Shown here: one piece after another, positions 44,865 through 62,196 of the stretch
How positions within the stretch are numbered: position 1 is the first letter of the stretch
How the letters are laid out: each line of letters starts with the position of its first letter
Assembly: GCA_964527765.1 (NCBI GenBank)
Contig: CAZGQR010000007.1
Span: forward strand, 38,100 to 100,295
Direction of reading: 5' to 3'
Source: an uncultured Planctomycetia bacterium
GTDB taxonomy: Bacteria > Omnitrophota > Gorgyraeia > Tantalellales > Tantalellaceae
DNA: 62,196 nucleotides
Made by a program: the position numbers and the translations under genes
The notes under the pieces: model-generated
Databases searched by the model: none
Told to the model about the DNA's origin: nothing
What the model saw: the letters and a program-made list of their open reading frames with translations, nothing else

Positions 44865-44889
44865 AACCGGTCGCAAATTGTGACCGGTT
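44865..44889. repeat. orphan ORF6N-type palindrome (AACCGGTCGCAA-A-TTGTGACCGGTT)
   Basis: 12-bp arms with one G-T pair. Lies between the stop of 44647..44841 and the stop of ORF6N copy 1. Related to the intragenic palindrome at 52653-52677. Confidence 0.75.
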
Positions 44890-44897
44890 CAGGACAA

Positions 44898-45434
44898 TTA
44901 ATCATGCTGAAAACCAATTCTGCGCTTTGGTTTTTCTGGCGGTGGCTCCATTAATCTACGAATTGCATCAAATATACTGCAAATCTCTTCATCATGTTCT
45001 TCGACTTTTCTTTCCAGTTCGCCTAGTTTATGCATCAGCTCCTTATGGGCAGAAATCATTTCCTTAAGCTTAACAAACACTCGCATAATAGCGATATTTA
45101 CCTGTATGGCTCGTTCACTATTCAATACACTGGAAAGCATCAGGATGCCATGTTCAGTAAATGCATATGGCAAATATCTCCTGCCCCCTCGTTTTGAGGT
45201 TTCAAATTGAAACCTCAAACTTTCGTCCTCTTTTTTGCTCAATTGGAACATAAAATCTTCAGGAAAACGACTCATGTTGCGCTTTACAGCCAGATTGAGG
45301 GACTTTGTCGGCACTCCATAGAGCTTTGCCAGGGTCCTATCCAACATCACTTTTTTGCCTCTGATCAGGAGTATTCTACTTTCGATAGTCTCCTGCGGAA
45401 CCAGACCTGCTGCCGAACTCTTCTTTTTAACCAT
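44898..45434 (-). CDS. ORF6N (KilA-N-like) domain DNA-binding protein, copy 1
   Basis: [46 protein letters not shown]...[34 protein letters not shown]...[20 protein letters not shown]. Confidence 0.85.
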   Translation of the reverse strand: MVKKKSSAAGLVPQETIESRILLIRGKKVMLDRTLAKLYGVPTKSLNLAVKRNMSRFPEDFMFQLSKKEDESLRFQFETSKRGGRRYLPYAFTEHGILMLSSVLNSERAIQVNIAIMRVFVKLKEMISAHKELMHKLGELERKVEEHDEEICSIFDAIRRLMEPPPEKPKRRIGFQHD

Positions 45435-45550
45435 AAAGACTCCTTACTTTTTACTTACATCAAAAACCCGGTCCTCCCGCGACCTGTTTATATAGACAAC
45501 TTTTTCACCTGAATTCTTTCAATCTTTTTCAGGGTGACCTTAAAAAGAGC

Positions 45551-46087
45551 TCATAGATCATGGCGAAACCCGATCCTGCGCTTCGGCTTTTCCGGAGGCG
45601 TTAATAACTGTTTTATGGCTTCAAAAACAACTTTGAATTGATGGTCATATTTTTTCTCCATATCCTCAATTTTTCGCTGCAGATCCGCATGCGTCAACAG
45701 CATTTTCCTTAGCCTGGTAAATACCCTCATGATCTGAATATTGACCAGTATGGCGCGCTCACTGTTTAGAACACTTGAAAGCATGGAAACACCTTGCTCC
45801 GTGAAAGCATAAGGCCTTCTTCTCAATCCCATTTTTTCTCGATTGGATATCACAATTTGTGATTTCCAATTTCCCACTTCTTCCTTAGTCAATTGAAACA
45901 TGAAATCCCCAGGGAAACGTGCTGTATTTCTTTTTACTGCCTGGTTTAATGTCCTTGTTTCTACGCCGTACAGCGCGGCCAAATCTCTATCAAGCATCAC
46001 CTTCTTCCCTCTAACCAAAAGTATTTTGCCTTCAATGGTTTCCTGCAGGACTAGGCCCGCCTCTGCCGATTTCTTCCTTTTTGCCAT
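45551..46087 (-). CDS. ORF6N domain DNA-binding protein, copy 2
   Basis: Same architecture as copy 1. Ends ...[21 protein letters not shown]. Confidence 0.85.
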
Positions 46088-46178
46088 GAAAACTCCTTGT
46101 CCTTTTGCGTAAAACCCGGTCCTCCCGCGACCTACCTATATAGACAACTTTTCCGCCTGAATTCTTTCAATTTTTTCA

Positions 46179-46290
46179 GGGTGGCACAAAAAGAGCATAA
46201 AACTGGCTGTCTAAGTTGGACGGTTCCAATATTAGCGAGCCCATCCGTCCAAAAATAGCATAAGTGGGCTTGCTGAGGAGGCTTGCTGGA
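46179..46290. repeat. junction motif GGTGGCACAAAAAGAGC plus conserved hairpin module (copy C)
   Basis: TTGGACGG (46216-46223) pairs with CCGTCCAA (46245-46252). AGCGAGCCCA and TGGGCTTGCT form a second complementarity. Homologous to 52223-52345 and 61309-61430. Confidence 0.8.
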
Positions 46291-46365
46291 TATTTGTGAC
46301 GCATAACTCTAATAAATACAACATATTACATCCCGTTAAGAATACAATACTCATCTCACTTTATG

Positions 46366-46394
46366 TTGACCTAACAAAGTGCAAATGCTATAAT
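46366..46394 (+). promoter_or_regulatory. sigma70-type promoter with extended -10 for giant ORF 2
   Basis: TTGACC (46366-46371), 17-nt spacer, TGcTATAAT (46386-46394). Confidence 0.6.
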
Positions 46395-46483
46395 AATTCA
46401 AGCTAGATAAAGGCAAACCTGTGGTGACATGGGGGCGCAAAATTAGGGGTCTAGAACTCAAAGGCATAAGTAATTTTAGACAG

Positions 46484-46521
46484 CCCGATTACCTGGAAAT
46501 GAGGTAATCGGGTTTTGTTTT
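46484..46521 (+). terminator. terminator-like hairpin inside the 5' leader of giant ORF 2 (candidate attenuator)
   Basis: CCCGATTACC (46484-46493) pairs with GGTAATCGGG (46503-46512), then TTTTGTTTT. Enclosed by AGGCATAA (46462-46469) and TTATGCCT (46520-46527). Confidence 0.5.
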
Positions 46522-46608
46522 ATGCCTGGGACACGAACTGATCATCTTTCCCCTAATAAGATGATTCAGTTCCCCAGGCAATAAAAAGAGAGAAGAAGCT
46601 AGAGAAAG

Positions 46609-49600
46609 ATGAGTAATTACAAAAATAGGCACAGGAAATGGATAAGGACCATAGCTATGGTCGTAGTGTGTCTGTTTTCCTCTATAAATATCACAACATA
46701 TGCGGATATAGCAGAGAGTACTTTAGCTCCAAAATTGCTTACGTCAAGCATAACTCAAAAAAATGATAGTGGAGTCGACACAAGAAAAGTGCTTTACCGC
46801 AAAGAAGGAGAAATAAATAAACTCTTTGATGCGGTATCAAGGGCGCATGAGATGGGGAAAAAGCCGGAGTGGGAAAAGGTCGGTAAAGAAGCTTCCCGAA
46901 TTAAGAAGAATTGGGTGGCCTGTTATATGGGGCCTTGGTTGGCGGAAATATATGCGGACCGAGTTGTCTCAGAAGACGAAGCCCTACATGCGCGGGAGGA
47001 TTTTCGTTTGAATTTCAAACAGGCCGTTGTCGGGATAAATAGGTCTCGGCAGGAGCCTATTCCAAACATGGATATAAACGATATACTTTTATATGCCGAT
47101 GAGGCGTTTAATACACTCATGAGATCAAGTTCCGATTCCGGATGGAAGCGACAACTCTCGCGGATCGAAATATGGGGATCGGAAAGCGCAGAGCATCTTA
47201 CTCTTTCCCCCGAGGGGGATGGCAGTATGGTTGTTATGGATGATAGTAAGCCTTTCAATGATGAGGAGATGAAGGTAGTTTATGAGGTGCTTGAGGAGAT
47301 TGAAGGATATTTAGAGGAATTAGGCTTTCCTGAGAATCATCCTAAAACCGGCGCGTCAATGAAACCGGATTACGAGCGATATGAGAATCAAAAACTGCCC
47401 GTATATAAAGTGATTTTACGCGCTTATGGCATGGAGGGATGGAATTACGAGTTTGAGAACATACACCAGGATGAGTATCCTCCGCTCATAGGCAAGAACG
47501 GGCAACCGCAACCAACAAGAAGTGAGATCATTAAAGTGATAGAACAAAAGTTCAAGGAAAGAGGCTGCATGGATTTCAGCGTGTCGTTGAACAGGAACAC
47601 GATCATCACGATAGTGAAGAAAGGTGTAACTAAGACCCGGGGCATCAGGAAACTTCTGGAAGAAGGGCCGGTAGTATATTTCGGTGATGAGACAGGGCTT
47701 GGAAATGACCGCGAAGTTTCAGAAATGGCTATAGGAGAAGATGCTCTTTTGACGGTAGGTCTTGATAAAAAGAAAAAAGTCGAGAAAAAAGAAAAGCCTT
47801 TCCCAAAAGGGGTAGCTTACACTGGTGGCTTGACCGAAGGGCTTAAGAAAGTGCTCAAGAGGTTCACCGAGATACTGAAAGAGAACAATACCGTAATGCC
47901 GGACAATAAGGCGATAGCCGAAGCTTTTATACAAGCGGTAAGGGATACGGCGGATTGGGCTTTACTGAAAGAGAAGGGTTATAGGGACGAGGTCGATAAA
48001 AAACTGGGATCTTTTCTGAAGGCGGCAAGCCGTTCAAAGAAGCCGATAAGTTTCGCGTTCGACAGCGACGGCACTCTTACAACCGGCAGAGGAGCTCCCA
48101 TCGATGAGGAAACGGGGAATATCCTGGCGGAGATGATGAGTTTTACCAAGGGTAAGATCGCGGTTTTGACGGGAAAGCTCAGGGAAGATCTTAGGGAATG
48201 CTATATACCTGACGATCTGTGTCTTATCGCGCATAAGAACAGCCTGATAACACGTGAAAGAAAAAGAGCTATCCCGGAAAAGTATCCAGGCACGGATGAA
48301 TTTGATGAATTTAAAAGAAAATATTTCGCTTGCTATACTCTTTTTGCCCATAAAGCAGTAAATGAATATATTAAAAGTCAAATTCCTCAAGAAGGCATAG
48401 AAGCTTTGCAGTCAAGAACTGACAAAGTTATTATTTCCGAGACTGAGCAGCAAGAAATTATTATTGTTGCCATTCCGGACTTATTAAAAAACACTGGTCA
48501 ACTCGCGCATATAGGACTAGGCAGCAGGAATGGCGTGCCCACTGCTTATGTCGATAGCACCTATTTTTACGATGAAGATGTGCTTGCTCATGAAAAAGAC
48601 GAGATTGCAAGTTGGGAGAGGAAAAGAAAAGAACTTGACCTTACATATAAGGAAATGCGGGAATGGATAAAAACAAATCCCGAAGCAAAGAAACTTGCCT
48701 CTGAATTTCATGCCTCTTCATATAGCCTGGAAAGCTCACATTCCCGAATTCAGGAAAAATACCAGAATCTATTGGATCTGGATAACATTTATGCTGCTTA
48801 TCTGGCCTATGGCTTCGATGTTGATGATAATGATGTGAATATCGCAGCCCATAAAAAGAAGAAAAGGGATGAGGCAATTTCTCCAGAGATAATAAAAATG
48901 GTTGTGGGTCAATGCCAGGGGATCGTACAAACGCTTGACATGTCGACCGGTGATAAATGCATAGAACGAGAGCTGAAAAAAATTAATAAGATTTTAAAAG
49001 AACGTCAAAATGACAAAGCGCTTATCTACGCACTGCTTGCAGTGGACATGTATGAAATTAATAAAGTTATCATGGACAATACCGATGACGATTCCTTATT
49101 TTTTTCAAACCCCATCCTTTTTGTGAACGACCACGTGAGAAAATCCGTTAAAGAGTTTGCAAGACAAATTAAAAATGCTGTTGCAAGCTATGAAAGAGAA
49201 AAATATTTTCCCGACAGTGACGTACGGGTTGTTGCCACTTATGCGGGGGGCATTGATAAAGATTTAAGATTCTTAAAGAAGAGCACTGACCAGATTTTTG
49301 AGATATTCCCTGAACTTCGAAGGGTTTTCTTGAATTTGCCAGCCATACTAATAAGGAATTTAAAATGGCCTCTTGCTGCATTTGATTGGGAAGGAGCAAA
49401 GACCATTAAAATATCAAAAGAGTTCCTGGACCTCGCAAAAAAGGATATTTCTATTTTCTACCTTCTGGGAAGTGCCATTGCGCATGAATTAGACCATGCC
49501 AGGTTTGACAGCAGTTATAAATTGGGAGACTTAATCGCATGGTCCGTTGAGTTTGAAAGGGAAGAGAAAAACCTTACTCCGATTACGCCAAATACTCTAA

Positions 49601-50889
49601 ACCCATTTGTATATTTTATGGAAATCTCGGCATGTTTAACAGATGCCAGATATACATTGACCCAAATGGAACGGCTAACGTCTTCCGAGCAAAAGGGTGT
49701 ACGAAAAAAGCTTAAATTACATATATCAAGAAATTTGGAAGGGGTAAAGTGCGCACTAAATGTCCTAAAAAGGCATAAAAAGGAAAAAATATTTACTAAA
49801 AAAGGTGAGCAATTACTTGTGGAGTATACCGAAAAACTGGATCAACTGGAAAAGGCATATGCAGATTCTCTAAAGAAGAAGACACCCACAGCTGTGGCTA
49901 AAAATGCTAAGGCGCGAAAAAAGGACAAAGGCTGTCCGGAGAAGCTCCTTGAGGATATCCGCAACAATGACATTCTACTGAGAAAGGCCCTAAGCGAAGA
50001 AGGCATATCAAGGCAGGAGATACTGGCTATCCGCGACTGGTCCGAGAGGACCGTGGACAGGGAAGTGGAGATCCTAAAGGCACTTGGCATATTTGTTCCT
50101 ATAGAAGAGAAGACCGGACATTACAAATTCAGCGATATGATGAAGGGTCCAAACGAAAATTACACTAAGACCATGATCAATGCAATAAATGACATAAAGT
50201 ACCAAGTTGGCCAAAAAGGCGAAGAAAGGCCGCTTAATCGCTACGATATCCCTAAAGATAAAAGACCTGCGGTAAAAGAGCTCATCAAAATGACTGTATT
50301 ACACCAAGCAAATCTCATGCAAAGGTCAGCTACCCTCGAGAATAAGGTTTTATGGCACATCATTGAACGTGACGTTTTATCTGACTCTCAAAAGAACTCT
50401 TTTGCTCAACAGATAAATACCGCATCAATGAAATCAGGTTCTCCTGAAAGAATATGGATCCTTAAAAGAGAGGAAACAATAAAAGAGGCTATCGCAAAAA
50501 TTAAGGCAATTTGTCCAAACGCTGTCTTCGACGTTGCTTTAAGCAGCCCGGATCATATAGAAAAAATACCGGCCCTGGAAGGGGAAAAAGAGATCAAAAT
50601 GCTTGTTTTTAAGGGGACAGCTGGAGATTTTAGTCAAATAGAGGGCGTAATAGCCGCTTTAAGGGCATTGCATCTCAAGAAAGAACAGGTCATACCGGCT
50701 CTTTTAAGAATATATTCAATTATGGCAGGGGCTCCCTATACCGGAGAGATCCCTTCGGAGGCCACACTGGAGGACGTAAGGGAATTCGCACGCAAGTTTA
50801 TATTTGACCTGCCGCCTGCAACAGAACTGCCTGTCGATGATATCCCGAAGCTTAACGAGAGACTAAAAGAGCTTCTTATAGCAGCTTAA
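46609..50889 (+). CDS. giant protein 2 (1426 aa) with N-terminal signal-anchor, HAD-like motifs and an HExxH motif
   Basis: 4.28-kb ORF. N-terminus NRHRKWIRTIAMVVVCLFSSINITTYADI. FDSDGTLT and GDETGLGNDRE. AIAHELDHARF (49483-49497). Tail ...LKELLIAA. Confidence 0.85.
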   Translation: MSNYKNRHRKWIRTIAMVVVCLFSSINITTYADIAESTLAPKLLTSSITQKNDSGVDTRKVLYRKEGEINKLFDAVSRAHEMGKKPEWEKVGKEASRIKKNWVACYMGPWLAEIYADRVVSEDEALHAREDFRLNFKQAVVGINRSRQEPIPNMDINDILLYADEAFNTLMRSSSDSGWKRQLSRIEIWGSESAEHLTLSPEGDGSMVVMDDSKPFNDEEMKVVYEVLEEIEGYLEELGFPENHPKTGASMKPDYERYENQKLPVYKVILRAYGMEGWNYEFENIHQDEYPPLIGKNGQPQPTRSEIIKVIEQKFKERGCMDFSVSLNRNTIITIVKKGVTKTRGIRKLLEEGPVVYFGDETGLGNDREVSEMAIGEDALLTVGLDKKKKVEKKEKPFPKGVAYTGGLTEGLKKVLKRFTEILKENNTVMPDNKAIAEAFIQAVRDTADWALLKEKGYRDEVDKKLGSFLKAASRSKKPISFAFDSDGTLTTGRGAPIDEETGNILAEMMSFTKGKIAVLTGKLREDLRECYIPDDLCLIAHKNSLITRERKRAIPEKYPGTDEFDEFKRKYFACYTLFAHKAVNEYIKSQIPQEGIEALQSRTDKVIISETEQQEIIIVAIPDLLKNTGQLAHIGLGSRNGVPTAYVDSTYFYDEDVLAHEKDEIASWERKRKELDLTYKEMREWIKTNPEAKKLASEFHASSYSLESSHSRIQEKYQNLLDLDNIYAAYLAYGFDVDDNDVNIAAHKKKKRDEAISPEIIKMVVGQCQGIVQTLDMSTGDKCIERELKKINKILKERQNDKALIYALLAVDMYEINKVIMDNTDDDSLFFSNPILFVNDHVRKSVKEFARQIKNAVASYEREKYFPDSDVRVVATYAGGIDKDLRFLKKSTDQIFEIFPELRRVFLNLPAILIRNLKWPLAAFDWEGAKTIKISKEFLDLAKKDISIFYLLGSAIAHELDHARFDSSYKLGDLIAWSVEFEREEKNLTPITPNTLNPFVYFMEISACLTDARYTLTQMERLTSSEQKGVRKKLKLHISRNLEGVKCALNVLKRHKKEKIFTKKGEQLLVEYTEKLDQLEKAYADSLKKKTPTAVAKNAKARKKDKGCPEKLLEDIRNNDILLRKALSEEGISRQEILAIRDWSERTVDREVEILKALGIFVPIEEKTGHYKFSDMMKGPNENYTKTMINAINDIKYQVGQKGEERPLNRYDIPKDKRPAVKELIKMTVLHQANLMQRSATLENKVLWHIIERDVLSDSQKNSFAQQINTASMKSGSPERIWILKREETIKEAIAKIKAICPNAVFDVALSSPDHIEKIPALEGEKEIKMLVFKGTAGDFSQIEGVIAALRALHLKKEQVIPALLRIYSIMAGAPYTGEIPSEATLEDVREFARKFIFDLPPATELPVDDIPKLNERLKELLIAA

Positions 50890-50901
50890 TCTTTATCTAT
50901 A

Positions 50902-51366
50902 CTAAATTAAGGACGGATCCACAAGATCCGTCCTTTTTTGTATGCAGGTGCTGCTAAGGTCAATATGCGTTAATAACATTTTGCGTAGTTTAATAAATGT
51001 TCTGATAATCTGTATGTTAACTTGAATAGCTCTCTTACTGTTAAGAACTGAAGAAAGCATGGCCACCCCGGGTTCGGTAAAAACATGGGGCGGATAACGC
51101 AAGCCCATTTTATCTGCAGAATTGGAGGTGACAAATTGGCACCTCCAATCTTTAAACTCCTGTTTTGACAATTGAAACATAAAATCAGAGGGAAATCTAT
51201 CAAGATTCCTGCGCACCTGCCGTTTTAAATATTTGGTCTCAACGCCGTAAAGAATTGCCAGATCCTTATCCAGCATTACCTTTTTACCCCTAAGTAAGAG
51301 TATTTTACTTTCTATGGTTTCCTGTGGAATAAAATTTGTTACTGCCGAATTCTTCTTTTTAGCCAT
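50902..51366 (-). pseudogene. ORF6N domain gene, copy 3, 3'-truncated
   Basis: Start ATG 51366 (RBS AAGGAAGGA). Homology to other copies ends at ...KMLLTHIDL (about 50955). The remaining codons read through the terminator of giant ORF 2. The conserved ...KPKRRIGF tail is missing. Confidence 0.7.
50911..50939 (+). terminator. rho-independent terminator of giant ORF 2
   Basis: GGACGGATC (50911-50919) pairs with GATCCGTCC (50925-50933), then TTTTTT. Confidence 0.8.
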
Positions 51367-51554
51367 TAAATCCTTCCTTGGTTCAGTTTTTATCTGCCAC
51401 ACTATTATAGACAACTTTCTCGCCGAAATTCTTTCATTTTTTTTGGGGTGACCATAAAAAGAGCATATAGAAATAAGAAGCAGGGTGGAACATCCGCAAG
51501 GAATATAGTATAATTGTATAGAAAATCGTAAAATAGGGCAGAAAGTCGCAAATA

Positions 51555-51890
51555 ATGAGGATCTGGGACATCTCGCCGCAAAAATTATGCCGCAACCATC
51601 TCCTGGCGGAACACAGGGAACTCCACGCCATATGGAACATCATAACCCAAAAAAGGAAAGGATACTCAAAACATCCCGAAACGTTAAGGTGGAAAGGGAA
51701 GCTGAAGGCCCTGTATCTCAGGCATGAAAGATTAGTCAAAGAAATGAAGAAAAGGGGCTATAATCATAAAAGCCCTTTATCCAGGAAGCTGGCGACGGGG
51801 AAAGCCGGGCAGGACACATACGTCGATTCACCCGAAACGCAGATCAGGATCCTCAAGAAGAAAAAATGCGAGTGCGGCCGGCAGCTTTAG
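51555..51890 (+). CDS. pyrimidine dimer DNA glycosylase / endonuclease V (T4 DenV family)
   Basis: MRIWDISPQKLCRNHLLAEHRELHAIW...GYSKHPETLRWKGKLKALYLRHERLVKEMKKRGYNHKSPL. Confidence 0.8.
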   Translation: MRIWDISPQKLCRNHLLAEHRELHAIWNIITQKRKGYSKHPETLRWKGKLKALYLRHERLVKEMKKRGYNHKSPLSRKLATGKAGQDTYVDSPETQIRILKKKKCECGRQL

Positions 51891-51928
51891 GATAAATTTC
51901 AAAAAAGCTATAACCACAAGGAGAAAAT

Positions 51929-52096
51929 ATGGACGAAAAACAGGCAAGGCTCATAACCGCGCCACTGGTGGGAACCGGGATCATACTTATAATGATGTCC
52001 GCTTTCGATATAGTCCCCGCATGGGACAATGTCCTGATCTTTATCGGGATAGCCTGTTTTATAGTGTCGTGGGTCATAAAAAGAATGGCAAAATAG
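51929..52096 (+). CDS. small two-TM membrane protein (55 aa)
   Basis: RBS AAGGAGAAAAT. Encodes MDEKQARLITAPLVGTGIILIMMSAFDIVPAWDNVLIFIGIACFIVSWVIKRMAK. Confidence 0.4.
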   Translation: MDEKQARLITAPLVGTGIILIMMSAFDIVPAWDNVLIFIGIACFIVSWVIKRMAK

Positions 52097-52097
52097 G

Positions 52098-52214
52098 ATG
52101 GACAAGATACGCTACGAACTCGACCCCTACAACCGCCTTATCCTTAATAGGACCGGCAAAAAAGGGCGCCTCACGAAGTTCCGGAGGGTCCTGGACGGCC
52201 GGTTCAGGATATAA
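52098..52214 (+). pseudogene. 5' fragment (38 codons) of the 58839..59852 gene family
   Basis: MDKIRYELDPYNRLILNRTGKKGRLTKFRRVLDGRFRI-stop. About 90 percent nucleotide identity to 58839-58955. Homology ends where the TTAGGGTAACCATAAAAAGAGC junction begins. Confidence 0.75.
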
Positions 52215-52222
52215 TTATTTAG

Positions 52223-52345
52223 GGTAACCATAAAAAGAGCATATAGAGGGCTGTTGAAGTTGGACGGCTCCGATATTAGCAGCCCATCCGTCCAAAAACA
52301 GCATAAGTGGGCTTGCTGAAGAGGGCTGGCTGGGTGTTTGGGGTG
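52223..52345. repeat. junction motif GGTAACCATAAAAAGAGC plus conserved hairpin module (copy E)
   Basis: TTGGACGG (52260-52267) pairs with CCGTCCAA (52288-52295). AGCAGCCCA and TGGGCTTGCT are also complementary. Confidence 0.8.
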
Positions 52346-52437
52346 TTATAGAAAGTTCTGTCATTCCCGCGAAAGCAGGAATCCATAAGCCCGGTTATTG
52401 GTGTAGGTGGTTTTTAAGGCGCATTTTGGTCACCAGT

Positions 52438-52873
52438 TTAATCATGGCGAAATCCTATCCTGCGTTTCGGCTTTTCTTCAACAGGCGGTTCGACTAGCCG
52501 CTGGATCGCTTCAAAGATCACTATAATTTCTTTATCATGGCGATCTACTTTCTCTTGCAGGAATTCAAGTTGCAGTAAAATTTCTTTGTGTTTAATTATA
52601 GTTTCACGCAATTTAACATAAGGGCATAGCGCCCGAATGTTTAAGCGAATTCAACCGGTGACAAATTGTCACCAGTTCGTCCCGTTCTTTTTTATTAAGC
52701 CTGAACATGAATTCCTTTGGAAACCGCTGAATATTACGCTTGACCTGCCGATTCAAATATTTCGTCTCTACTCCGTACAGCTCAGCGATGTCTTTATCTA
52801 TGATGACCTTTTGACTGCGTATCAAGAAAATCCTTTGCTCAACAACTTCTTGTGGAATCAATTCTTTAACCAT
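52438..52873 (-). pseudogene. ORF6N domain gene, copy 4, internal deletion and frameshift
   Basis: The N-terminal 86 codons (52613..52873) stop after ...LVTICHRLNSLKHSGAMPLC. The AFTE...LNS core is absent. The C-terminal ...[26 protein letters not shown] is retained in another frame (52438-52612). Confidence 0.75.
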
Positions 52874-53276
52874 AAAAGCTCCTTTTTTAAATCTTGCCTC
52901 TGCTTATATAGACAACTCTCTCACCGAATTCTTTCAATCTTTTTCAGGTGACCATAAAAAGAGCTTACAGGGAAGGGGGAGGCTTGTGCTGTGAAAAGTC
53001 CACCGGGTTCAGTGCGCAATGGGTTTAGTGAATAAAGTCCTTGAACCTGATTCAAAATAAGGTTGTTAGTTATTGACAGGTGATAAATTTACTTATTTTT
53101 AAATAGTTCGAGCGCGAGGACACGGCTAAAAAGCACATTTTGTATATCTTAACCAAACTTTATTATCTTGTTATATAAATTAAACTTTGCTAAACTAACT
53201 TTGTATAAGCTAACCTTGCTAAATTTTACTCTCCTCATAAAAGCGTTATTTTCTTTCTCAATGAAGGGGTAACATT

Positions 53277-56200
53277 GTGAAAAGAACAAAAAGACTTAAT
53301 TTCTTTAAAATAATATCTATTTTCCTTGTCCTCAGTTTCCCGTTCAATGACGCGGCCTTCGCGATACCGGAACTTTCCAATATGCAAAGTCCGTCAAGCC
53401 CGCTCCAGCCATGGACCTTTACTGATAATTTCCTTGTGAAGCGTGAAATACTCTCGGAACTATATAAAAGATCACGGCTAATATGGATCGCCAAATCGAA
53501 AAGATACCGCGATCTCCTGGAGCAACATAACGCCGGGGCGCTGCTCCTTCCTTCGGGCAGGTATTTGATGGCGCAAGAGACAATGAAGGACGACCTCTCC
53601 CTGATCAGCGCCGTTACCCATGAGGATTATGAGATACTCATGCAGCGCGAACAAAAATCAAAACCTGCCAGATATGAAAAAGTTATGAAAGAAGTCCTTG
53701 GAAATAACCAGATCAGGCGCGCTTATTTTTCGCTGCCCGGATGCGAAAAAGCGAGTGACAACGTGATTTTTAACGATCTGATCGCGAAGGGCTTCGAGCT
53801 TCTGTTCCTTGTTGAAAATTCCCTCGTCGATCCGCGGACAGAACTTTCCCCGGAAGAAAAAACATTTCTTAAGAATATACGACCCGTCCTGGAAGCAAGG
53901 GATAAAAAAGGCGCTTATGAGAATTTCTCTCCGGTCTTTTTTGACGTCACGGAAAGGTTAAAGACCGTAAAAGACGCGCAGGAAGACGCGGATCAAAGAT
54001 TTTATAAAAGCGCTTCTTCAAAGAGGCAAACGCCGGACAACGAACAAGATGCGTCCGACAAACGGTTCAAATCCATCCTGCGCGCTTTAAGGAAAAAAGG
54101 GTTTTATATCGCAGGGGCGGCTGTGGTGGGCGCGTTCCTGGCGCTGGGAAACGCAGCGGCGGAACCGACAAAGACACTGAAAGAACTTCCTTCGAATGAT
54201 GAAAAACTGCGGCTTATTTTTGAAAATGCTCAAGAAGGCAAATATTCCTACGCGACATTTTTTGACGAGCTCATAAAGATCGACGATTTTCGCGTGTTTA
54301 GATATCTCGCGGGGCTCATGGAAAAGCATGAAATGCCGGCCATTCGCGAGCTTGCTGTCGAAACCCTGGCACGGCTTAATGACGTACGCGGGCTCGGGCC
54401 GCTGTTAAGAGCAAAGCTTTACGATAAAGACCCCGCCGTGCGGAAAAAAGCGAAAGAAGTCATTAAAAAGTACGAATATCTGGACTCGCTCAGTGCCCTT
54501 ATAAATGTTCTTATACAGGAAGACGACCCGAACATGCGCGAGGAGGTCCTTGCCGCCCTGGAAAAGCTCGATGACCCGGAGGCAGTTGAAGCGCTTTACA
54601 GGTTAAAAAAATTCCGCTCCGAAGGGACGGGTCTGAGCCGGATGGAGGCGGAGAAGGTGCGTCAAAACGCCGAAAAAACCCTGAAAGCCCTGGAAAAACT
54701 GGATGTACCGCGGATAAAAGAAGCGTTATCGCTGCGTACTCTCCCCGGGGAAGTGAAGCGTGAATGGTGGGAAACAGCCCTTCTGGGGGCCATAGCGCTG
54801 TGCAGTTTGCTTATTTTCTGGAAGGTGTTTATCGGGATATATAGGTACCGCAGGCTGAAAAAACACCTGCGGCGCGCCGAAACCATAGATCAGCTCATTA
54901 AAACGATCAAGACGTACAGGGGCAAGGGAGGAGTGTTCACGGATTCCGCGATAATAGCGAAAGCCCGGGAGATAACGGATGGCCTTGCGGAAAAGGCGAA
55001 AACGCTGCAAGATCTTAGCGAAATCGAAAAACAATTAGAAGCATTAGAAAAGTGGTTTTCGTCAGACCACATATCGACGGTCAAGTCCGGGGAATTACAG
55101 TCCAGAAAGTGGCATCTAGAGCAGGTAAAAGTAACCGAATTGCGCACCGGGATGATCAAGCGTTTGCAGTCCGCCGAAACCATTGACGAGATCATCCGGA
55201 TAATCGAAGAAGACAAAGGGAGCAAAAAAAGTGTATTAACCGCCGAAGGCACAAGTAAAAGCATAACACCGCTTTTAACAACCGCTCTGGGAAAAATCAA
55301 AGATCTGGAAGACTTAATAAAGGTAGAAGAGAAAATAACAAGGATAAAAGGGTATTTTTCCTATGCTTCAAAATCCCTTTTCGCCCGGGATTTATTTCGA
55401 AAAAAAGAAGAAGAGTTCCTGCAAAAGGAGAAAGAGAGCTTTGCTTCAAAGTTGCGTTTGGCGGAAAGTAACGAAAAATTTGAACTGGTCTTAATGGAAA
55501 AACTTGAATCTGTCTGCGGCCACATCGATAAAGAACAGTTTTTCCTGAGAACCGCCATGGATCTCGCTCATACCTACGACAGGCTAAAGAGCGTTTGCGA
55601 GTTCAATCATACCCGGACGGGTTCAAATATCATAGGCGCCGGGGAAATAATTAAAAAGCTTGAATCGCTGGGGATCAAACCGTCCGACAAACAATTAAAA
55701 GCGTTTTTCATCGAACTGGTGTGGAAAGGCGCGGAAACGCGCGTTAAAATATTGCGGCAACTCGCCAAAAAATTCGACGAAGAGCGAAAGGCGGACAAAA
55801 AGCGAAAAGCGGATCGGGGTTTAACGGAATATGGCCGCTGGACCGATTACCTTTTCGGCGAAGACAAAGTCCCAAGAAAAAGCGCTGAAATCGCGAAACA
55901 AATAAAAGAGAACTTGTCCGGCATGGATATACCGCTCTTAGAAACAACCGCGCGCAAAGTAAGCTCTATGTCTACGGAAGAGGATGCCGCGACTCTCATC
56001 GAAATGTTCAATGCCATACACTTTGCCAATAAAATGGACGTGATCTTCAACCAAAACCGTCCGTACGCCAAGAGTTATGAAGAATCGAAGGACGAAAAGG
56101 ACCTTGATTTTGAGAATTATTGCGCTGGCCTGATCGAATCCTACGGCTTAATTTCCTTCAAGAATGAGGCCGGAAAGAAGGCGATGGTTGATTTTCTCGG

Positions 56201-58721
56201 CGGAGTAGCCGGAAACGGCCTTGATTACGCGGTTTATGTCAGGCAGGCGGCCGTTACCGCGCTCAGAAAGATCGGCGGCCCGGATGCGGAAACAGATGTT
56301 GAGAGCGTCATTGAAGATCCGGATATAATGACAAGAGAGGTCAGGGTAGAGAAGTGGCATTCGCAGGACAGGATAAAGCATGCGATCATTGACGGTCTTA
56401 AATTCGTGGCAGGCGAACAGGCCCTGCCCGGAACCGTGAAAGATATAGAGAATAATATAGATTACGTTTTTGACAGGATCCCGGGGCTGGTCGACTTTTT
56501 AAAAAAATACCCCTTGAGGTTATTCCGGATGAGAGACAAGCGGAAGATAGACTCGATCGTGCTCGGTGAGTTCAGAAAGTACTGGTTCAGGATACTCGGG
56601 TACGTATGGTTCTACGGCATAAGCGGCGGGGGCATGTTCGAGGCCTACAGGGAAATAGTGCTTCGACACCAGGATTCGCCGATAGACATGGGCGTGGCTG
56701 TTGAGCTTTTCACCAACAGGCATATTCTGGCAAGCGTACTGTATCATGAATACATGCATTACAAGGGTGAATTGAGCGAAGGCAAAACCCTTTTCAGGCA
56801 GATAAACTTCCTGAGAGAAATAATCGCCGGGGAAGGCCTTTCCGATCCTGCCGGAATGGCGAAAATGGAAAAACAGATCGCGGAGTGTATTACTGCGTTG
56901 GGATTATTGCCTCTTGGCCTGTTTCTCATGTTCCCGCACGATGAAAACTACAGAAAAAACCTGAACAGTTTCATATTATCGGCTTACGGTCCCGACGATA
57001 TGACAGACGCGGACATGCGCAAAGAAGCGGAAAGGATCATACAAAACGTAAAAGATTTCATCAACAGGGCGAACAAGAAAATAGAGATACAGAAACTTAC
57101 TGAACCTAACCTGCAATTCTACAAGCCCCTGACAGAAGAGCAGGAAAGCCAGATCATGACCTTCGTGAGGCTTTCCAAGCAGGTGAAAAACGCTGTCAGC
57201 GAAGCGGACTTCCGAAATATCCAGATAAACGACGAAAAAGCACTGGAATTATGGGAGGAATATCTGAAAAAAGGCGGCGGGTCCGTTTTAAAGTCGGACC
57301 TGATAGGCGACTTTGACTCGATCGTAAGGTGGGGACTTTCATCCGGCGGTATTCTGGACGGTCCCAAAAACCTTTTACGCGGCGACGTGAACGAACTGAC
57401 CGAGACCCATCCCGCGCTTGAAAAAGCCGCGAATGACGGCAGGATGTTCGCCGTGAGAGAGGACCAGGTCAGCAGCCTGCGCGAATCGGACAACGAGGCT
57501 CTGGCGTTGATCGTTACAGGGAACCTTGTCAATCTCAAGCACCCCGAGGGAACAAGAAACAAGATCCTCGAAAAGCTCAAGGACCCGATCTTCAGAAGGA
57601 ACATACTGGAAGGCCTGCGCATGATGAAGGATGCCGCGGGCGACCGCCTGCCTCAAAAGATACCCACCCGTTTATGCATAATCGTCGAAAAAGAAGACCA
57701 GCCAGCTGTAATATTCCGGGACAAAGACAATAATCTCATCGCTCATACCGGCAAAGGCTACAAGACAAACAGCCCCTATCATTCCATCTATGTCGGCTAC
57801 AGCGTGGTGGAATATGCCGCCGGCTCGGACAGGGAAGAGGACTTCAAAAGGATCATCCGCCATGAAATAAAAGATCTCCTGATCGGTCGTCATGATAGCG
57901 AGGACGAAGAGCTGGGAAAAATAGAACAATTTTACGACGATCTTATCTATGAACGATTGAAACATCTGAAACCGGTAGCGGACGCTTTTTATTATCTGGG
58001 AAAAGCGGCAAAAGAAACGGGTCTCAACAATTACACAAGCCGGTTAGGCGGCACTTGCCAGAAATCCTTCAACCGTTCGAACCTTCGGTACTGCATCCCG
58101 ATGGAAGTGTTCAAGAACGCGCCCGACGCTACGCTCGCATTGAAAAGGCTTGACATGCTAAACAATAAAAGAAGGGGGCAGGAGAAGATCGAACTTGAGA
58201 TCATCCTGACCGGCGTTACTGAGCATGACGAGGAATCGCTCGGCCGTTTCAACAGAAATGATATCAAGTGCGTGCTCGGGCTGCCTGACAACCTGAAGAT
58301 ATCCTTTATAAGATCGGAAGAAATGAGGTCGGCGGCAGAACGGACATTCAAAGATCTGAACAACCCATCAGACAGGATAGAAGTGATAAAATCGTTAGCC
58401 CTGCAGGTGAAGCCGCTCGCGGAAAACGAATATATGGCGATTGCTGAGGTCACAGGGAATGCCGATAGCATTGATCTTATAAGAGGCAAAACAGAACCGC
58501 AACTGGCAGACAACCTTTCATTAAGGGTGCTGGTCCGGCCGGAACGCGGAAAAAGCGCATTTTCGCTCGCCGCCGTAATAAACGGCTGGCTGAAAGAGCT
58601 TCACCGGGGCCGGACTTCCACGTTCGATGTTATCCTGCCTGTCATGATCTCTCCGCGTGAGATGATAGACCTTCTCGCTGAAAAAACGGAAAAAGCCTGG
58701 CGAATCTTAGCCTCAGCATAG
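53277..58721 (+). CDS. giant protein 3 (1814 aa) with N-terminal signal-anchor, two internal TM segments, HEAT-like repeats and an HExxH motif
   Basis: GTG start after GAAGGGG. N-terminus KRLNFFKIISIFLVLSFPFNDAAFAIPE. HEAT-like AIRELAVETLARLND...DPAVRKKAKEV...DPNMREEVLAALEKLDDPEAVEAL. VLYHEYMHYKG (56745-56759). Tail ...AWRILASA. Confidence 0.85.
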   Translation: MKRTKRLNFFKIISIFLVLSFPFNDAAFAIPELSNMQSPSSPLQPWTFTDNFLVKREILSELYKRSRLIWIAKSKRYRDLLEQHNAGALLLPSGRYLMAQETMKDDLSLISAVTHEDYEILMQREQKSKPARYEKVMKEVLGNNQIRRAYFSLPGCEKASDNVIFNDLIAKGFELLFLVENSLVDPRTELSPEEKTFLKNIRPVLEARDKKGAYENFSPVFFDVTERLKTVKDAQEDADQRFYKSASSKRQTPDNEQDASDKRFKSILRALRKKGFYIAGAAVVGAFLALGNAAAEPTKTLKELPSNDEKLRLIFENAQEGKYSYATFFDELIKIDDFRVFRYLAGLMEKHEMPAIRELAVETLARLNDVRGLGPLLRAKLYDKDPAVRKKAKEVIKKYEYLDSLSALINVLIQEDDPNMREEVLAALEKLDDPEAVEALYRLKKFRSEGTGLSRMEAEKVRQNAEKTLKALEKLDVPRIKEALSLRTLPGEVKREWWETALLGAIALCSLLIFWKVFIGIYRYRRLKKHLRRAETIDQLIKTIKTYRGKGGVFTDSAIIAKAREITDGLAEKAKTLQDLSEIEKQLEALEKWFSSDHISTVKSGELQSRKWHLEQVKVTELRTGMIKRLQSAETIDEIIRIIEEDKGSKKSVLTAEGTSKSITPLLTTALGKIKDLEDLIKVEEKITRIKGYFSYASKSLFARDLFRKKEEEFLQKEKESFASKLRLAESNEKFELVLMEKLESVCGHIDKEQFFLRTAMDLAHTYDRLKSVCEFNHTRTGSNIIGAGEIIKKLESLGIKPSDKQLKAFFIELVWKGAETRVKILRQLAKKFDEERKADKKRKADRGLTEYGRWTDYLFGEDKVPRKSAEIAKQIKENLSGMDIPLLETTARKVSSMSTEEDAATLIEMFNAIHFANKMDVIFNQNRPYAKSYEESKDEKDLDFENYCAGLIESYGLISFKNEAGKKAMVDFLGGVAGNGLDYAVYVRQAAVTALRKIGGPDAETDVESVIEDPDIMTREVRVEKWHSQDRIKHAIIDGLKFVAGEQALPGTVKDIENNIDYVFDRIPGLVDFLKKYPLRLFRMRDKRKIDSIVLGEFRKYWFRILGYVWFYGISGGGMFEAYREIVLRHQDSPIDMGVAVELFTNRHILASVLYHEYMHYKGELSEGKTLFRQINFLREIIAGEGLSDPAGMAKMEKQIAECITALGLLPLGLFLMFPHDENYRKNLNSFILSAYGPDDMTDADMRKEAERIIQNVKDFINRANKKIEIQKLTEPNLQFYKPLTEEQESQIMTFVRLSKQVKNAVSEADFRNIQINDEKALELWEEYLKKGGGSVLKSDLIGDFDSIVRWGLSSGGILDGPKNLLRGDVNELTETHPALEKAANDGRMFAVREDQVSSLRESDNEALALIVTGNLVNLKHPEGTRNKILEKLKDPIFRRNILEGLRMMKDAAGDRLPQKIPTRLCIIVEKEDQPAVIFRDKDNNLIAHTGKGYKTNSPYHSIYVGYSVVEYAAGSDREEDFKRIIRHEIKDLLIGRHDSEDEELGKIEQFYDDLIYERLKHLKPVADAFYYLGKAAKETGLNNYTSRLGGTCQKSFNRSNLRYCIPMEVFKNAPDATLALKRLDMLNNKRRGQEKIELEIILTGVTEHDEESLGRFNRNDIKCVLGLPDNLKISFIRSEEMRSAAERTFKDLNNPSDRIEVIKSLALQVKPLAENEYMAIAEVTGNADSIDLIRGKTEPQLADNLSLRVLVRPERGKSAFSLAAVINGWLKELHRGRTSTFDVILPVMISPREMIDLLAEKTEKAWRILASA

Positions 58722-58838
58722 ATCCGGATGATCCCCGCAGTTTGAGAAATTATTTAAAGAAAGCTATGGAGCGGGGGAGGAGTGTGGGTGTAAAATAGGG
58801 GTAGGAATTTAATCTTAAAAACGGCATAAATTACCCTC

Positions 58839-59852
58839 ATGGAAAAAATACGCTACGAACTCGACCCCTACAACCGCCTTATCCTCAATAAGGCCGGCAG
58901 GAAAGGGCGCCTTACGAAGTTCCGGAAGGTCCTGGACGGCCGGTTCAGGATCGACAGGAATAACACGCTTTCCTACCATGTAAAGGCCCCTTTATCCGGG
59001 AAAAAGAACATTCCCCATCAGATCAGACTGAAGGGTGAATGGAAGCTTACCGATGACCATGACCTCCGCCTTACCCTGGATAAGGAGGGGAGGGAGACCC
59101 TGGGGGATAAGATCACGCTTAGGGGCGAGATGCTGGAGGCAGGCAGGAATTCGCTCCTCTTCGCCGTCAGCACGAAAACCAGGGAAAATACCCGCCTCAC
59201 ATACGTCCTGGAGCTCGGGGGCTCCTGGAAGGCGGATAAGAATAACCGCCTGACCTTCCACGTAAAGAAGGAAAAGGGCAGGCATGATATCCTCACCTTC
59301 AAGGGCGCCTGGGAGATCAACAAGGACCACCAGATCATATACAACTATGAAAAGGCCGCCCTCATCAGGAAAAAGAAAGAGCTCCATACATTGACATTCA
59401 AGGGACACTGGGATATCAGGGACAAGTGCCGCATATCGTATGTATTAAGCGGGAGGACTGATTCTGCCTTTGATTTTAAGACGAGTGCCGGCGTCTTCAG
59501 GGATAATTATATTAAATACGAATTAGGGATAGGGTTGACTGGCAGAAAAGAGCCGGTAAAGCGGGCCGTTACTCTATTCGGCAGGTGGAAGCTTAAAAAA
59601 GGCACAGGGCTCACCTTTGAAGTGGAATACGGGGCTAAGAAGGTACAGAAAATAGTCTTCGGGGCGGAAGCCAAACTCACGGATAAAGACACGATCCTCT
59701 TCAAGCTCAGAAACGATACAGGCGCCAGGGACATAGGCGCGAGTCTGGAGCTTTCTCATAGAATATTAAAAGGCGACGGCGAAGCTTTCGTGCGTCTCCT
59801 TAGATCAGGCAGGGAATCAGCTATATACGCAGGGGCTGCCTGGAGGTGGTAG
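58839..59852 (+). CDS. beta-repeat hypothetical protein ending in an aromatic OMP-like tail (...YAGAAWRW), no signal peptide
   Basis: 337 aa with repeated LxFxGxWxLxxxxxLxF-type units. Both of its ends are duplicated elsewhere in the window. Confidence 0.75.
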   Translation: MEKIRYELDPYNRLILNKAGRKGRLTKFRKVLDGRFRIDRNNTLSYHVKAPLSGKKNIPHQIRLKGEWKLTDDHDLRLTLDKEGRETLGDKITLRGEMLEAGRNSLLFAVSTKTRENTRLTYVLELGGSWKADKNNRLTFHVKKEKGRHDILTFKGAWEINKDHQIIYNYEKAALIRKKKELHTLTFKGHWDIRDKCRISYVLSGRTDSAFDFKTSAGVFRDNYIKYELGIGLTGRKEPVKRAVTLFGRWKLKKGTGLTFEVEYGAKKVQKIVFGAEAKLTDKDTILFKLRNDTGARDIGASLELSHRILKGDGEAFVRLLRSGRESAIYAGAAWRW

Positions 59853-59981
59853 GGTAACTTTAGGAGGCGGGGGAAATAAATTGGAAAAGTACTTTATCAA
59901 GTGTATAATAAAATAAAGAACGGGTTAGAGTCGATCTTGGGATTATCCCGATAAATTACCACAAAAAGGGGGAAATCTGAT

Positions 59982-61145
59982 ATGAAATACTTAAAGAATT
60001 TAATTATATTTTTATTAATATTGAATGTTGCAACAGCTGCAGAAAGCAAATCGAAATATGCTCCATTTTCAGATAAAGCATATATTAAAGAAAATATTAG
60101 CGAAATCGGGATACTTGTCTCCGGTTTAGACACTCGTACTTTGCAGTACTTACTGACACTATACGACAAGGCATATAAATTAAAAACTAAACTTTATCCC
60201 ACATTACAAGGCGTTTTTTTAGCTATTAGAGACGGGTCTTTTAGAGTTTTTGATGACGGGGTTTCACCTATTCCTAGTTCCAAATTGATTAGTGGTGGTG
60301 GGACTGTATATGCCGGAATAAACAGCGATATTGCAGATGTTATTTCACGCAGTTTAAATGATCGAGGCTATGAATGCACTTATCTAAACCCAAAGGAGTT
60401 CATGAAAGATTATTATAACAAAAATACACTATCTGAAATAATCGATATTGCAAAACAACATATGCCGGAATTGGATGCGATTATATTTGTATTTTATACT
60501 GCATATGATAGTATTTCCCAGGGCAATATGATCCACAAGGGTCTTTTTGTATGTGCAGATTGTGTAATGTTTAGTACAGGTGAAGATAAAAAACGATTAT
60601 ATATAGGACAAGTGACAGCGAGTCCGTATGGTCTTCCTGAAGATCAACAACAGATTTATACAGTTAAAGATGCCCTTGGTTTTAAATCTCAAAGAATGGG
60701 TTTTACTCCGAGCGATGTGTATAAACTATTTCTTTCGGATTTATCACGCGAATTTTCGGATTCTTTTGACAAAACAGAAAAACAAACAAAACAAGTGTTT
60801 GCCGCGAATGACAAAGCAAAAAAACAAGTGTTTGCCGCAGTTAAGAATAAAAAACTCGCTTCTGAATTAGAGAAGTTGGTCAAGTGTGCTGATGACAACA
60901 CCGATAATTTCGAAAGCCTGGATCTGGGCGTAAATACAAGAGGTGGGCAAGAGATCAGAGTAAAAATAAAATCATCTGTATTATTAGAATTACCCGAACT
61001 TATGAAAAAATTGGACATTAAAGAAGACTCTTATGCGATGGAACAAATACATAGAAGAGAGTATGTTAAATTTATTGTGGACGTTTCCAGTGGAAAGTAT
61101 TCTTTTGATTACTCTTTGAGAAGCAGCAGTTTCGGAAGGTTCTAG
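59982..61145 (+). CDS. secreted hypothetical protein on a markedly AT-rich cassette
   Basis: RBS AAAGGGGGAAA. Signal peptide MKYLKNLIIFLLILNVATAAES. Composition is visibly more AT-rich than its surroundings. Confidence 0.7.
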   Translation: MKYLKNLIIFLLILNVATAAESKSKYAPFSDKAYIKENISEIGILVSGLDTRTLQYLLTLYDKAYKLKTKLYPTLQGVFLAIRDGSFRVFDDGVSPIPSSKLISGGGTVYAGINSDIADVISRSLNDRGYECTYLNPKEFMKDYYNKNTLSEIIDIAKQHMPELDAIIFVFYTAYDSISQGNMIHKGLFVCADCVMFSTGEDKKRLYIGQVTASPYGLPEDQQQIYTVKDALGFKSQRMGFTPSDVYKLFLSDLSREFSDSFDKTEKQTKQVFAANDKAKKQVFAAVKNKKLASELEKLVKCADDNTDNFESLDLGVNTRGGQEIRVKIKSSVLLELPELMKKLDIKEDSYAMEQIHRREYVKFIVDVSSGKYSFDYSLRSSSFGRF

Positions 61146-61160
61146 CGCCAATTTCATCTC

Positions 61161-61232
61161 GAGGCCTTCGTGCGCCTCCTTAGATCGGGCAGGGAATCAG
61201 CTGTCTACGCGGGGGCTGCCTGGAGGTGGTAG
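61161..61232 (+). repeat. direct repeat of the last 72 bp of gene 58839..59852 (copy 2)
   Basis: Encodes EAFVRLLRSGRESAVYAGAAWRW-stop, versus 59781-59852. In frame with the TAG stop of 59982..61145. Confidence 0.85.
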
Positions 61233-61308
61233 GGCTACAGGGACTGTCCCCACCCAAACCATATGCATCCTGGGGGACTGTCCCTTAAGAGGGTAGAGTT
61301 TGTTTTAG

Positions 61309-61430
61309 GGTAACCATAAAAAGAGCTTATAGGTGGCTGTAAAGTTGGACGGCTCCGGGTCTAGCAGCTGATCCGTCCAAAAACAGCATTAGTGGGCTTG
61401 CTCAAGGGGGCTAGCGGGGTTTTTGGGGGG
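61309..61430. repeat. junction motif GGTAACCATAAAAAGAGC plus conserved hairpin module (copy G)
   Basis: TTGGACGG (61345-61352) pairs with CCGTCCAA (61373-61380). Confidence 0.8.
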
Positions 61431-61447
61431 GCATTTTGGTCACCAGC

Positions 61448-61954
61448 TTAATCATGGTGGAATCCTATCCTACGCTTCGGTTTCTCTGGTGGTGATTCCA
61501 TTAATTTTTTTATGGCTTTAAAAACGATTTGAAACTGGCCGTCATATTTCTTTTCCATGGCTTCGATTTTTCGTCTAAGGCTTTCATGCGTAAAACCTAT
61601 TCTTCTCAAGTTCACAAAAACTCGCATGATTTGAATATTCACCTCAACTGCTCTCTCACTGTTAAGGACACTTGAAAGCATAGCGATGCCCTGTTCAGTA
61701 AAAGCGTATGGCACGTATCTTCTGCCGCCCCAACTTGAGGTCGCAAATTGCGATTTCAAGTTCGTAACTTCTTTCCTGGTAAGGGGAAACATAAAATCTT
61801 CGGGAAATCGTTTTAAATTCCTTTTAACCTGTTCATTTAAGCGACTGGTAGGAACACCATAAAGTTCCGCCAGGTCTTTATCCAGCATCACATTTCTGCC
61901 CCTTACCTGGTAAATCTTATTTTTCACGTTATTTGCTGAAATAATTTCCTTCAC
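61448..61954 (-). CDS. ORF6N domain DNA-binding protein, copy 5
   Basis: GTG start after GGGAGGA. ...[35 protein letters not shown]...[34 protein letters not shown]...[11 protein letters not shown]. Confidence 0.85.
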
Positions 61955-62136: not shown

Positions 62137-62196
62137 AATGCTTGAACCGGTTTCATCGAACGAAGTTCTGGAAACCGGTTTAGAACATAATATTTA

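Follow-up and report, generated by a model that had tools for sequence, protein, structure and literature searches.

A covarying palindrome embedded in ORF6N genes is maintained by nucleotide-level selection across two reading frames

Introduction

Operators that lie inside a gene and are paired with a promoter operator are known from lacO2 in lacZ and galOI in galE, and centromere sites of the parS type, one invariant 16-bp sequence, occur within parB/spo0J. Here we describe a palindrome of 25–35 bp overall length that occupies one fixed spot in ORF6N genes. It was analysed computationally, starting from a 62,196-nt stretch of contig CAZGQR010000007.1 (assembly GCA_964527765.1, positions 38,100–100,295 of the forward strand) from an uncultured bacterium placed in Omnitrophota; this whole stretch is referred to as the window, and coordinates are window positions unless a locus is named.

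The ORF6N palindrome resembles lacO2 and galOI as an in-gene dyad site with one or more partners a few hundred bp away (here 216–309 bp), which in ORF6N are putative promoter sites. It differs from them in that it lies in the gene of the candidate regulator itself, occupies one homologous position in thousands of genes and has an almost perfect symmetry that dictates amino acids; its role as a binding site is putative. With parS it shares a near-perfect palindrome, conserved across phyla, in the coding sequence of its own (for ORF6N, putative) DNA-binding protein. Unlike in parS, the arms vary and covary, and the genes reside in defence or mobile islands, often as several paralogues. A ParB–parS module was considered and rejected, with no ParB domain or fold match and no ParA-type ATPase among the called neighbours. 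Covarying arms, a preserved structure and copies near mobile-element genes also recall attC sites, IS200/IS605 ends, REP/RAYT elements and rolling-circle origins. Compared with hairpins of the attC, IS200 and REP types, the ORF6N palindrome is free of extrahelical bases, has a conserved core and is not dispersed over the genome. An attC-like or other recombination hairpin acting on single-stranded DNA (ssDNA) was likewise rejected, as no IntI, HUH or RAYT partner and no junctions at the sites were found, and integrases are adjacent in a few plasmids only. A search of one literature library retrieved no published description of the palindrome, including in work on the ORF6N/PDC-S05 family. The element is a gene-embedded cis site, known in kind; what is unusual is that DNA symmetry dictates ~11 codons and is kept in two frames.

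Results and discussion

The window contains five ORF6N genes, all on the minus strand, each with a palindrome inside it. Copy 1 (44898–45434; 178 aa, intact) harbors a perfect palindrome with 13-bp arms at 45193–45219, TTTGAGGTTTCAA-A-TTGAAACCTCAAA, encoding S-LRFQFETS-K. Copy 2 (45551–46087), also intact with 178 aa, has 14-bp arms and 1 mismatch at 45842–45870. Copy 3 (50902–51414) is truncated at its C-terminus and is without the last ~45 family residues; its true start is likely the ATG of MAKKK, inside the listed open reading frame (ORF), and its palindrome at 51121–51149 (14-bp arms, 1 mismatch) encodes DWRCQFVTSN. Copy 4 (52438–52873) is a pseudogene of the alternative (alt) class described below, broken by a ~90-nt internal deletion and a frameshift into ORFs 52613–52873 and 52438–52611. 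Its palindrome at 52653–52677 has 12-bp arms with one T·G mismatch and is read in the alternative frame (ELVTICHRL). The intact copy 5 (61448–61954; 168 aa) carries 15-bp arms at 61732–61762, whose two mismatches are A·C when read on the sense strand. A sixth site, AACCGGTCGCAA-A-TTGTGACCGGTT at 44865–44889, which the initial annotation called an orphan, has its centre 24 nt past the stop codon of copy 1 and is a non-coding site of the alternative, copy-4 type; further sites of this type lie between ORF6N genes in locus L006 and ahead of an alt-class gene in L169.

Coordinates, arms, centres and mismatch counts of all six sites were re-found exactly as initially annotated. The order of the encoded peptides given there was wrong, with LVTICHRL belonging to copy 4 and LKSQFATS to copy 5. 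The proposal that the palindrome sits at the same codon position in every copy fails for copy 4, which uses a different codon phase (centre 46 nt, not 48 nt, after the FMF motif). A window-wide scan (arms ≥11 bp, no more than 1 mismatch, loops of 0–3) gave 18 hits, compared with ~1 in mononucleotide shuffles (range 0–6). Ten of the 18 hits represent five of the six ORF6N-linked sites, each counted at two loop sizes; the copy 5 palindrome, with two mismatches, lies outside the filter. Folded as ssDNA, the sites reach −8.9 to −11.2 kcal/mol (z = −3.2 to −4.8 versus shuffles). Across the window the site is present in only six copies, every one at ORF6N genes, and dispersed palindromes of the REP/BIME type were ruled out, since both these copies and those in the 740 kb of loci described below cluster at ORF6N genes.

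The palindrome is widespread. Arms of 11–18 bp were found at the homologous position in ~90% of ~270 ORF6N homologues from many phyla, plasmids and viral contigs. A survey of one genome per species yielded 80 loci, with relatives at 52–66% identity, spanning Omnitrophota, Planctomycetota, Nitrospirota, Acidobacteriota, Bacteroidota, several proteobacterial classes, CPR lineages and others. Among the 97 genes of these loci and the window, about nine in ten have the palindrome with 11–18 bp arms at the homologous codons, centred on the opening base of the codon that follows Gln/His (CAA-W-TTG or CA-WWW-TG), and ~10% have lost it. It is also found in ORF6N genes on Bacteroides and Butyrivibrio plasmids and in 22 of 26 distinct ORF6N sequences from viral contigs, and in its alternative frame on a Legionella pneumophila plasmid and two Segatella plasmids of 3–4 kb that encode Rep and ORF6N only; a second Legionella plasmid has only a short remnant. 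Universality across Pfam PF10543, the family to which these proteins belong, was rejected on account of a Bacillus phage antirepressor (33% identity) without palindrome, so that the element marks a large clade and not the whole family. In 5426 E. coli genomes the site is essentially absent, with one imperfect non-coding copy on a P1-like plasmid. That copy, TTTGAGGCCACAA-T-TTGTGACCTTAAA (L252 2501–2533), lies in an unannotated 1-kb non-coding stretch and, at E = 0.8, may be chance. On Bacteroides and Legionella plasmids, ORF6N was also seen directly beside a tyrosine integrase gene (L082 1118–3561; L083 1674–3897; L084 1790–3543); in L082, a family palindrome is located 4 nt past the stop codon of the integrase and precedes a second integrase gene, after which ORF6N follows.

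The constraint on nucleotides was quantified by synonymous-codon resampling, with each protein kept fixed. In the canonical class, which encodes LRSQFVTS at the site, 13.56 of 17 positions pair, as opposed to 6.5–6.7 ± 0.18 after resampling (highest mean among 1000 runs, 7.3), placing the observed value ~38 standard deviations (SD) above the resampled mean; the alt class pairs at 11.57 of 13 positions versus 6.47 ± 0.18, and shifted centres in the same segments reach only ~4.2 of 17. Codon choice at the palindrome is nearly fixed: Leu is TTG in 69/77 cases (gene-wide share of TTG, 18%), Gln is CAA in 76/80 (45%), Ala is GCG in 31/32 (26%), Val is GTG in 29/32 (27%), Ser at position +4 is TCA in 69/79 (17%) and Ser at position +5 is AGT in 45/52 (19%). 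Across 95 distinct sites, pairing holds in 90.9% of cells, whereas shuffles give 73.8 ± 0.7% and slid partners 24–44%, and double-sided changes number 243 where 74 ± 11 are expected. Compensatory change affects 12 of 14 arm pairs and alters amino acids, which move in lockstep: Ser(TCA) with Val(GTG), Ser(TCG) with Ala(GCG), Phe(TTC) with Gly(GGA), Cys(TGC) with Gly(GGC), Tyr(TAC) with Gly(GGT), Lys(AAG) with Thr(ACT), Arg(AGG) with Thr(ACC), Lys(AAA) with Ile(ATT) and Trp(TGG) with Ser(TCC). The initial annotation had proposed selection on the nucleic acid and not on the protein only, and had named two checks, codon-shuffled controls and homologues beyond the window. The former do not recreate the palindrome, and in the latter it is almost universal and accompanied by compensatory changes, so the proposal is strongly supported. 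Nucleotide-level selection maintains the palindrome as a cis-acting DNA element.

The same DNA is read in two frames, a point absent from the initial account. A second, large subfamily, the alt class, encodes EVVANCDHL or ELV(A/T)(N/I)CDRF where the canonical class has LRSQFVTS. Its DNA, GAGGTGGTCGCAA-A-TTGCGACCACCTC or GAACTGGTCGCAA-A-TTGCGACCGGTTC, shares the inner core of the canonical CTTGAGGTCGCAA-W-TTGCGACCTCAAG, namely GGTCRCAA-W-TTGYGACC, and the outer arms are subfamily-specific. Relative to the first base of the conserved FMF motif, the palindrome centre lies 48 nt downstream in the canonical class (85/95) and 46 nt downstream in the alt class (42/52). Copy 4 is accordingly, in its palindrome frame, a member of a natural subfamily and no frameshifted oddity. 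Homologous ORF6N proteins thus encode different peptides from one palindromic DNA, and it is the nucleotides that are conserved.

Copies of the palindrome also exist outside coding sequence. In 740 kb of loci, 208 family palindromes were detected, 172 within ORF6N genes and 36 outside, and almost none lies distant from an ORF6N gene. Of the outside copies, 28 are centred 6–100 nt upstream of ORF6N starts, in 24 of ~165 loci and often in pairs; a few lie just past a stop codon, as the window orphan does. Further copies precede ORF6N genes on viral contigs, and the non-coding copies of this kind in other loci amount to ~40. They are surrounded by stop codons, and the DNA on either side of them shows no homology to ORF6N, which makes them sites and not remnants of genes. 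Their arms end at 12–13 bp, and although the set was picked for symmetry, so that only its sequence conservation is informative, position k=6 is T-A in 40/40 copies and the core is invariant. Upstream arms agree more closely with the palindrome of the adjacent gene than with the palindromes of other genes (9.9 versus 8.1 of 13; Wilcoxon p = 2.5e-4), and rare arm variants are common to a gene and its upstream copy in L086 (ATCGAGATGCCAA), L152 (CACAG), L049 (TTCCA) and L165. The upstream and in-gene sites are separated by 216–309 bp, and by 245–251 bp in the best-matched pairs. In L121 and L135 the upstream palindrome is kept and no good in-gene palindrome is present. Among near-identical viral loci, the upstream palindrome has A at its centre in L238 (994) and T in L239–L249 (~1446), a change that inversion of the palindrome would produce but that is also a simple transversion.

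The symmetry of the element bears on whether DNA or RNA is the functional form. T stands at the centre of 52 sequences and A at that of 42, and the triplet centres AAA and TTT are both present. Mismatches on the sense strand comprise 31 G·T, 41 A·C and 80 others, showing no wobble bias on either strand. A symmetric centre and the lack of wobble bias fit a duplex dyad, or a structure on either strand, and fit an RNA hairpin poorly. Scanning with Rfam recovered no family at the sites, even at E ≤ 1; neither there nor ahead of copies 1 and 2 was an intrinsic terminator or a promoter consensus detected, and the site sequences are free of T-runs.

The protein side is consistent with a DNA-binding role. 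Copies 1–5 match PF10543 (ORF6N) with E values of 1e-22 to 6e-37 (77–126 bits; gathering score 27.8 bits), and the homologues found also carry this domain; this KilA-N-related family is predicted to bind DNA and counts at least 8000 relatives at E ≤ 1e-10. In an AlphaFold2 (AF2) model of copy 5 (mean pLDDT 77.5), an N-terminal α/β domain is accompanied by a helix at residues 60–66, a strand at 83–86 and a long helix at 100–136. The palindrome codes for the end of the 60–66 helix and for a low-confidence loop spanning residues 67–82, with pLDDT below 50 at 72–76. As modeled, this segment would be a permissive place in the protein, consistent with its tolerance of two frames. A sequence search of the PDB retrieved no relative with a solved structure.

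Taken together, conservation of the core in two frames and outside coding sequence, subfamily-specific arms, upstream copies that track their own gene, confinement to ORF6N loci and DNA-like symmetry argue for a sequence-specific dyad site whose reader is tied to ORF6N. The explanation that we tentatively put first, and that may well be correct, is that the ORF6N protein of each gene binds the palindrome within that gene as its cognate dyad-symmetric site, with an operator inside the gene and further copies at the promoter. We infer that ORF6N is the binding factor, that binding is dimeric and that transcriptional regulation is the outcome. One copy of the site is embedded in the coding sequence for a loop predicted to be poorly ordered, which tolerates two frames, and in roughly a fifth of loci one to three further copies stand 6–100 nt upstream of the start codon. 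Binding at the promoter-proximal and in-gene sites would lead to auto-regulation and to cross-regulation among the several paralogues of a genome, with arm variants perhaps keeping paralogues from mutual interference; the long C-terminal helix of the AF2 model could mediate dimerisation. Among the roles proposed initially, a dyad operator for the ORF6N protein itself fits best, given the matching non-coding copies just upstream of ORF6N genes, and an RNA processing or antisense element fits worst, given the symmetric centre and the missing bias toward wobble pairs.

Several observations weigh against such an operator. Ordinary operators tolerate imperfect symmetry. Here position k=4 varies freely (GC 32, AT 31, CG 27) and is nevertheless paired in 96% of sequences, and complementarity kept at free positions is predicted more directly by intra-strand base pairing than by the binding of a dimer. 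About 80% of genes have no detectable upstream copy, the five ORF6N genes of the window are without a full one, and several upstream copies begin a few nt past the stop codon of the preceding gene and could equally be end-of-gene hairpins. No helical phasing was detected between upstream and in-gene sites (Rayleigh p ~0.3–0.4). Finally, the Foldseek matches of the ORF6N model, to Ski/Dachshund and to the dimeric DNA binders MerR, MarR and RacA, are all non-significant.

Should the palindrome be the ORF6N target, as seems the most likely case, it supplies exact oligonucleotides together with natural specificity variants, and predicts auto- and cross-regulation among paralogues. ORF6N proteins number in the thousands in the defence and mobile islands of many phyla, and the conserved DNA element provides a first handle on their function. 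It also shows with unusual clarity how a constraint at the DNA level can override protein coding, with both the amino acids and the synonymous codons of ~11 codons set by dyad symmetry. This bears on models of codon usage, on covariation-based RNA discovery, where DNA dyads may appear as false positives, and on the annotation of "frameshifted" family members.

A DNA hairpin or cruciform, extruded from ssDNA during replication or transfer or from supercoiled duplex, is a serious rival or complement to the operator and possibly the form that is recognised, although as the main explanation we consider it rather unlikely. It might serve recombination, priming, replication or recognition by a structure-specific protein, possibly ORF6N. 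Strict complementarity even at the free positions k=4, 5, 7, 8 and 13 is what this explanation predicts, and the always A/T-rich centre would favor extrusion from arms of 12–17 bp worth −9 to −11 kcal/mol as ssDNA. Non-coding copies are perfect (CCGG) where coding forces a mismatch (CTGG/CCGG in alt-class genes). The A/T centre flips in near-identical loci, integrase genes beside ORF6N on Bacteroides and Legionella plasmids, and the 3–4 kb Segatella plasmids with Rep and ORF6N alone also point in this direction. However, a core sequence kept across two frames and in non-coding copies is not required of a pure structure, and argues for sequence-specific recognition and not for structure alone. 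Moreover, the palindromes do not have the extrahelical bases that mark attC-type sites, they are not consistently accompanied by a recombinase or HUH enzyme (none lies near the window copies), and strain comparison and paralogue mosaics reveal no recombination junction at the palindrome.

The initial annotation had placed rearrangement breakpoints next to the palindrome, which the comparisons of strains, paralogue mosaics and copy 4 do not support. Copy 4 aligns with an intact alt-class homologue over residues 1–83 and 114–169, with ~30 residues gone; the deletion covers residues ~84–113 of the homologue and begins ~25 nt beyond the 3′ end of the palindrome. Cassette breakpoints between L089 and L090 fall in repeated intergenic modules and not at the palindrome, and the mosaic junctions of the c5/c6 paralogues lie ~60 nt before and ~100 nt after it. 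Nor is the orphan a deletion remnant; it is a non-coding copy of an alternative-type site.

An mRNA hairpin, with the upstream copies in the 5′ untranslated region (UTR), might repress translation of its own gene, guide processing by RNase III or stabilise the transcript; as the main function it is improbable. Transcription of the gene always includes the in-gene copy, many upstream copies stop 5–45 nt short of the start codon, where they could occlude ribosome entry, some copies just past a stop codon resemble 3′ stabilisers, and the sense strand of alt-class genes constantly shows a T·G (G·U) pair. Yet G·U is overall no commoner than A·C (31 versus 41), and at k=7 it is far rarer (3 versus 17); the loops are found in either orientation, as A or T and as AAA or TTT, Rfam gives no match, no U-tract for termination is present, and ORF6N proteins are predicted DNA binders.

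Mutation is well known to correct quasi-palindromes by template switching, and a functionless quasi-palindrome might perpetuate itself through template switching during replication, giving covariation without selection. This would account for the symmetry at free positions, the A/T centre flips and the ~10% of genes that are without the palindrome and show no obvious harm, but it leaves unexplained the conservation of the core across two frames, the recurrent matching copies 6–100 nt upstream in unrelated phyla and the ~90% retention across many phyla despite the amino-acid cost. As a full explanation it is therefore quite doubtful, although homogenisation of the arms by template switching may contribute as well.

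A further variant, to which we assign a similarly small chance, makes the DNA site primary and the ORF6N loop its passenger, one that may help to read the site, so that a symmetric change would alter operator and reader together. If true, the site-encoded loop would form a self-linked specificity module through which the many paralogues of a genome could diversify into non-interfering pairs, and this would explain both the two-frame DNA and the rare arm variants common to a gene and its upstream copy. Lastly, the idea that the symmetry merely follows from the conserved peptide (R/K)xQ(F/I)x(T/I)S is refuted: the fixed protein alone does pair somewhat above background (6.5–6.7 versus ~4.2 of 17), but the observed 13.6 of 17 is far above the resampled mean, synonymous codons are near-fixed, the alt class draws a different peptide from the same DNA, and non-coding copies exist.

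Additional observations

A conserved module on the minus strand precedes each of copies 1–5 (45463–45544, 46111–46192, 51406–51459, 52907–52960 and 61978–62043). It combines a half-site-like TTTAAGGTCAC with an everted repeat, TCACC(C)TGAA-N16-TTCAGGTGA, and may represent another arrangement of the recognition sequence of the palindrome, a link that we regard only as a lead. Three families of repeated intergenic modules, D4, D5 and D8, were also noted (46214–46300, 52257–52343 and 61342–61428; 59780–59854, 61160–61234 and 62064–62138; 52098–52210 versus 58839–58951), one of which has a hairpin, TTGGACGG...CCGTCCAA. A separate palindrome with 12-bp arms, AAGGACGGATCC-ACA-AGATCCGTCCTT at 50909–50935, is found where copy 3 is truncated at its 3′ end and faces the end of the gene for a 1426-aa protein; it may be a bidirectional terminator that took the place of the copy 3 tail.

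PADLOC models of the phage-defence candidate PDC-S05 match copies 1, 2 and 5 (E = 3.5e-60 to 1e-57). Protection of E. coli against T4, T5 and T7 has been reported for a single PDC-S05 representative; that protein was described as having a RhuM domain, so it may belong to another subfamily than the ORF6N proteins of the window.

Tightly packed tandem ORF6N arrays are frequent among the loci, with three or four subtypes and canonical beside alt-class genes (L002, L006, L036, L044). Beyond the right end of the window follow a sixth ORF6N gene and, depending on the sample, type I restriction-modification or toxin–antitoxin genes. L089 (1–9600) and L090 (1–5900) contain the same ORF6N-flanked island with different cargo next to this sixth gene: type I restriction-modification genes and a helix-turn-helix (HTH) gene in one sample, and HigB-like, HTH-peptidase, PIN and flavodoxin genes in the other.

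Within the window, giant ORFs are interleaved with the ORF6N genes, at 46609–50889 (+, 1426 aa) and 53277–58721 (+, 1814 aa, HEAT repeats), and a pyrimidine-dimer glycosylase-like ORF (Pyr_excise) is located between copies 3 and 4 at 51555–51890 (+). A c-di-GMP-I-GGC riboswitch aptamer (RF03167) matches 46403–46497 (+) with E = 6e-12 and 59.3 bits, where the gathering score is 59, and the 1426-aa ORF starts ~110 nt further downstream. A cspA thermoregulator (RF01766) matches ~43000–43400 (+) at 84.7 bits, the 5′ end of the match being clipped by the search range, and is followed by a hairpin at 43370–43397.

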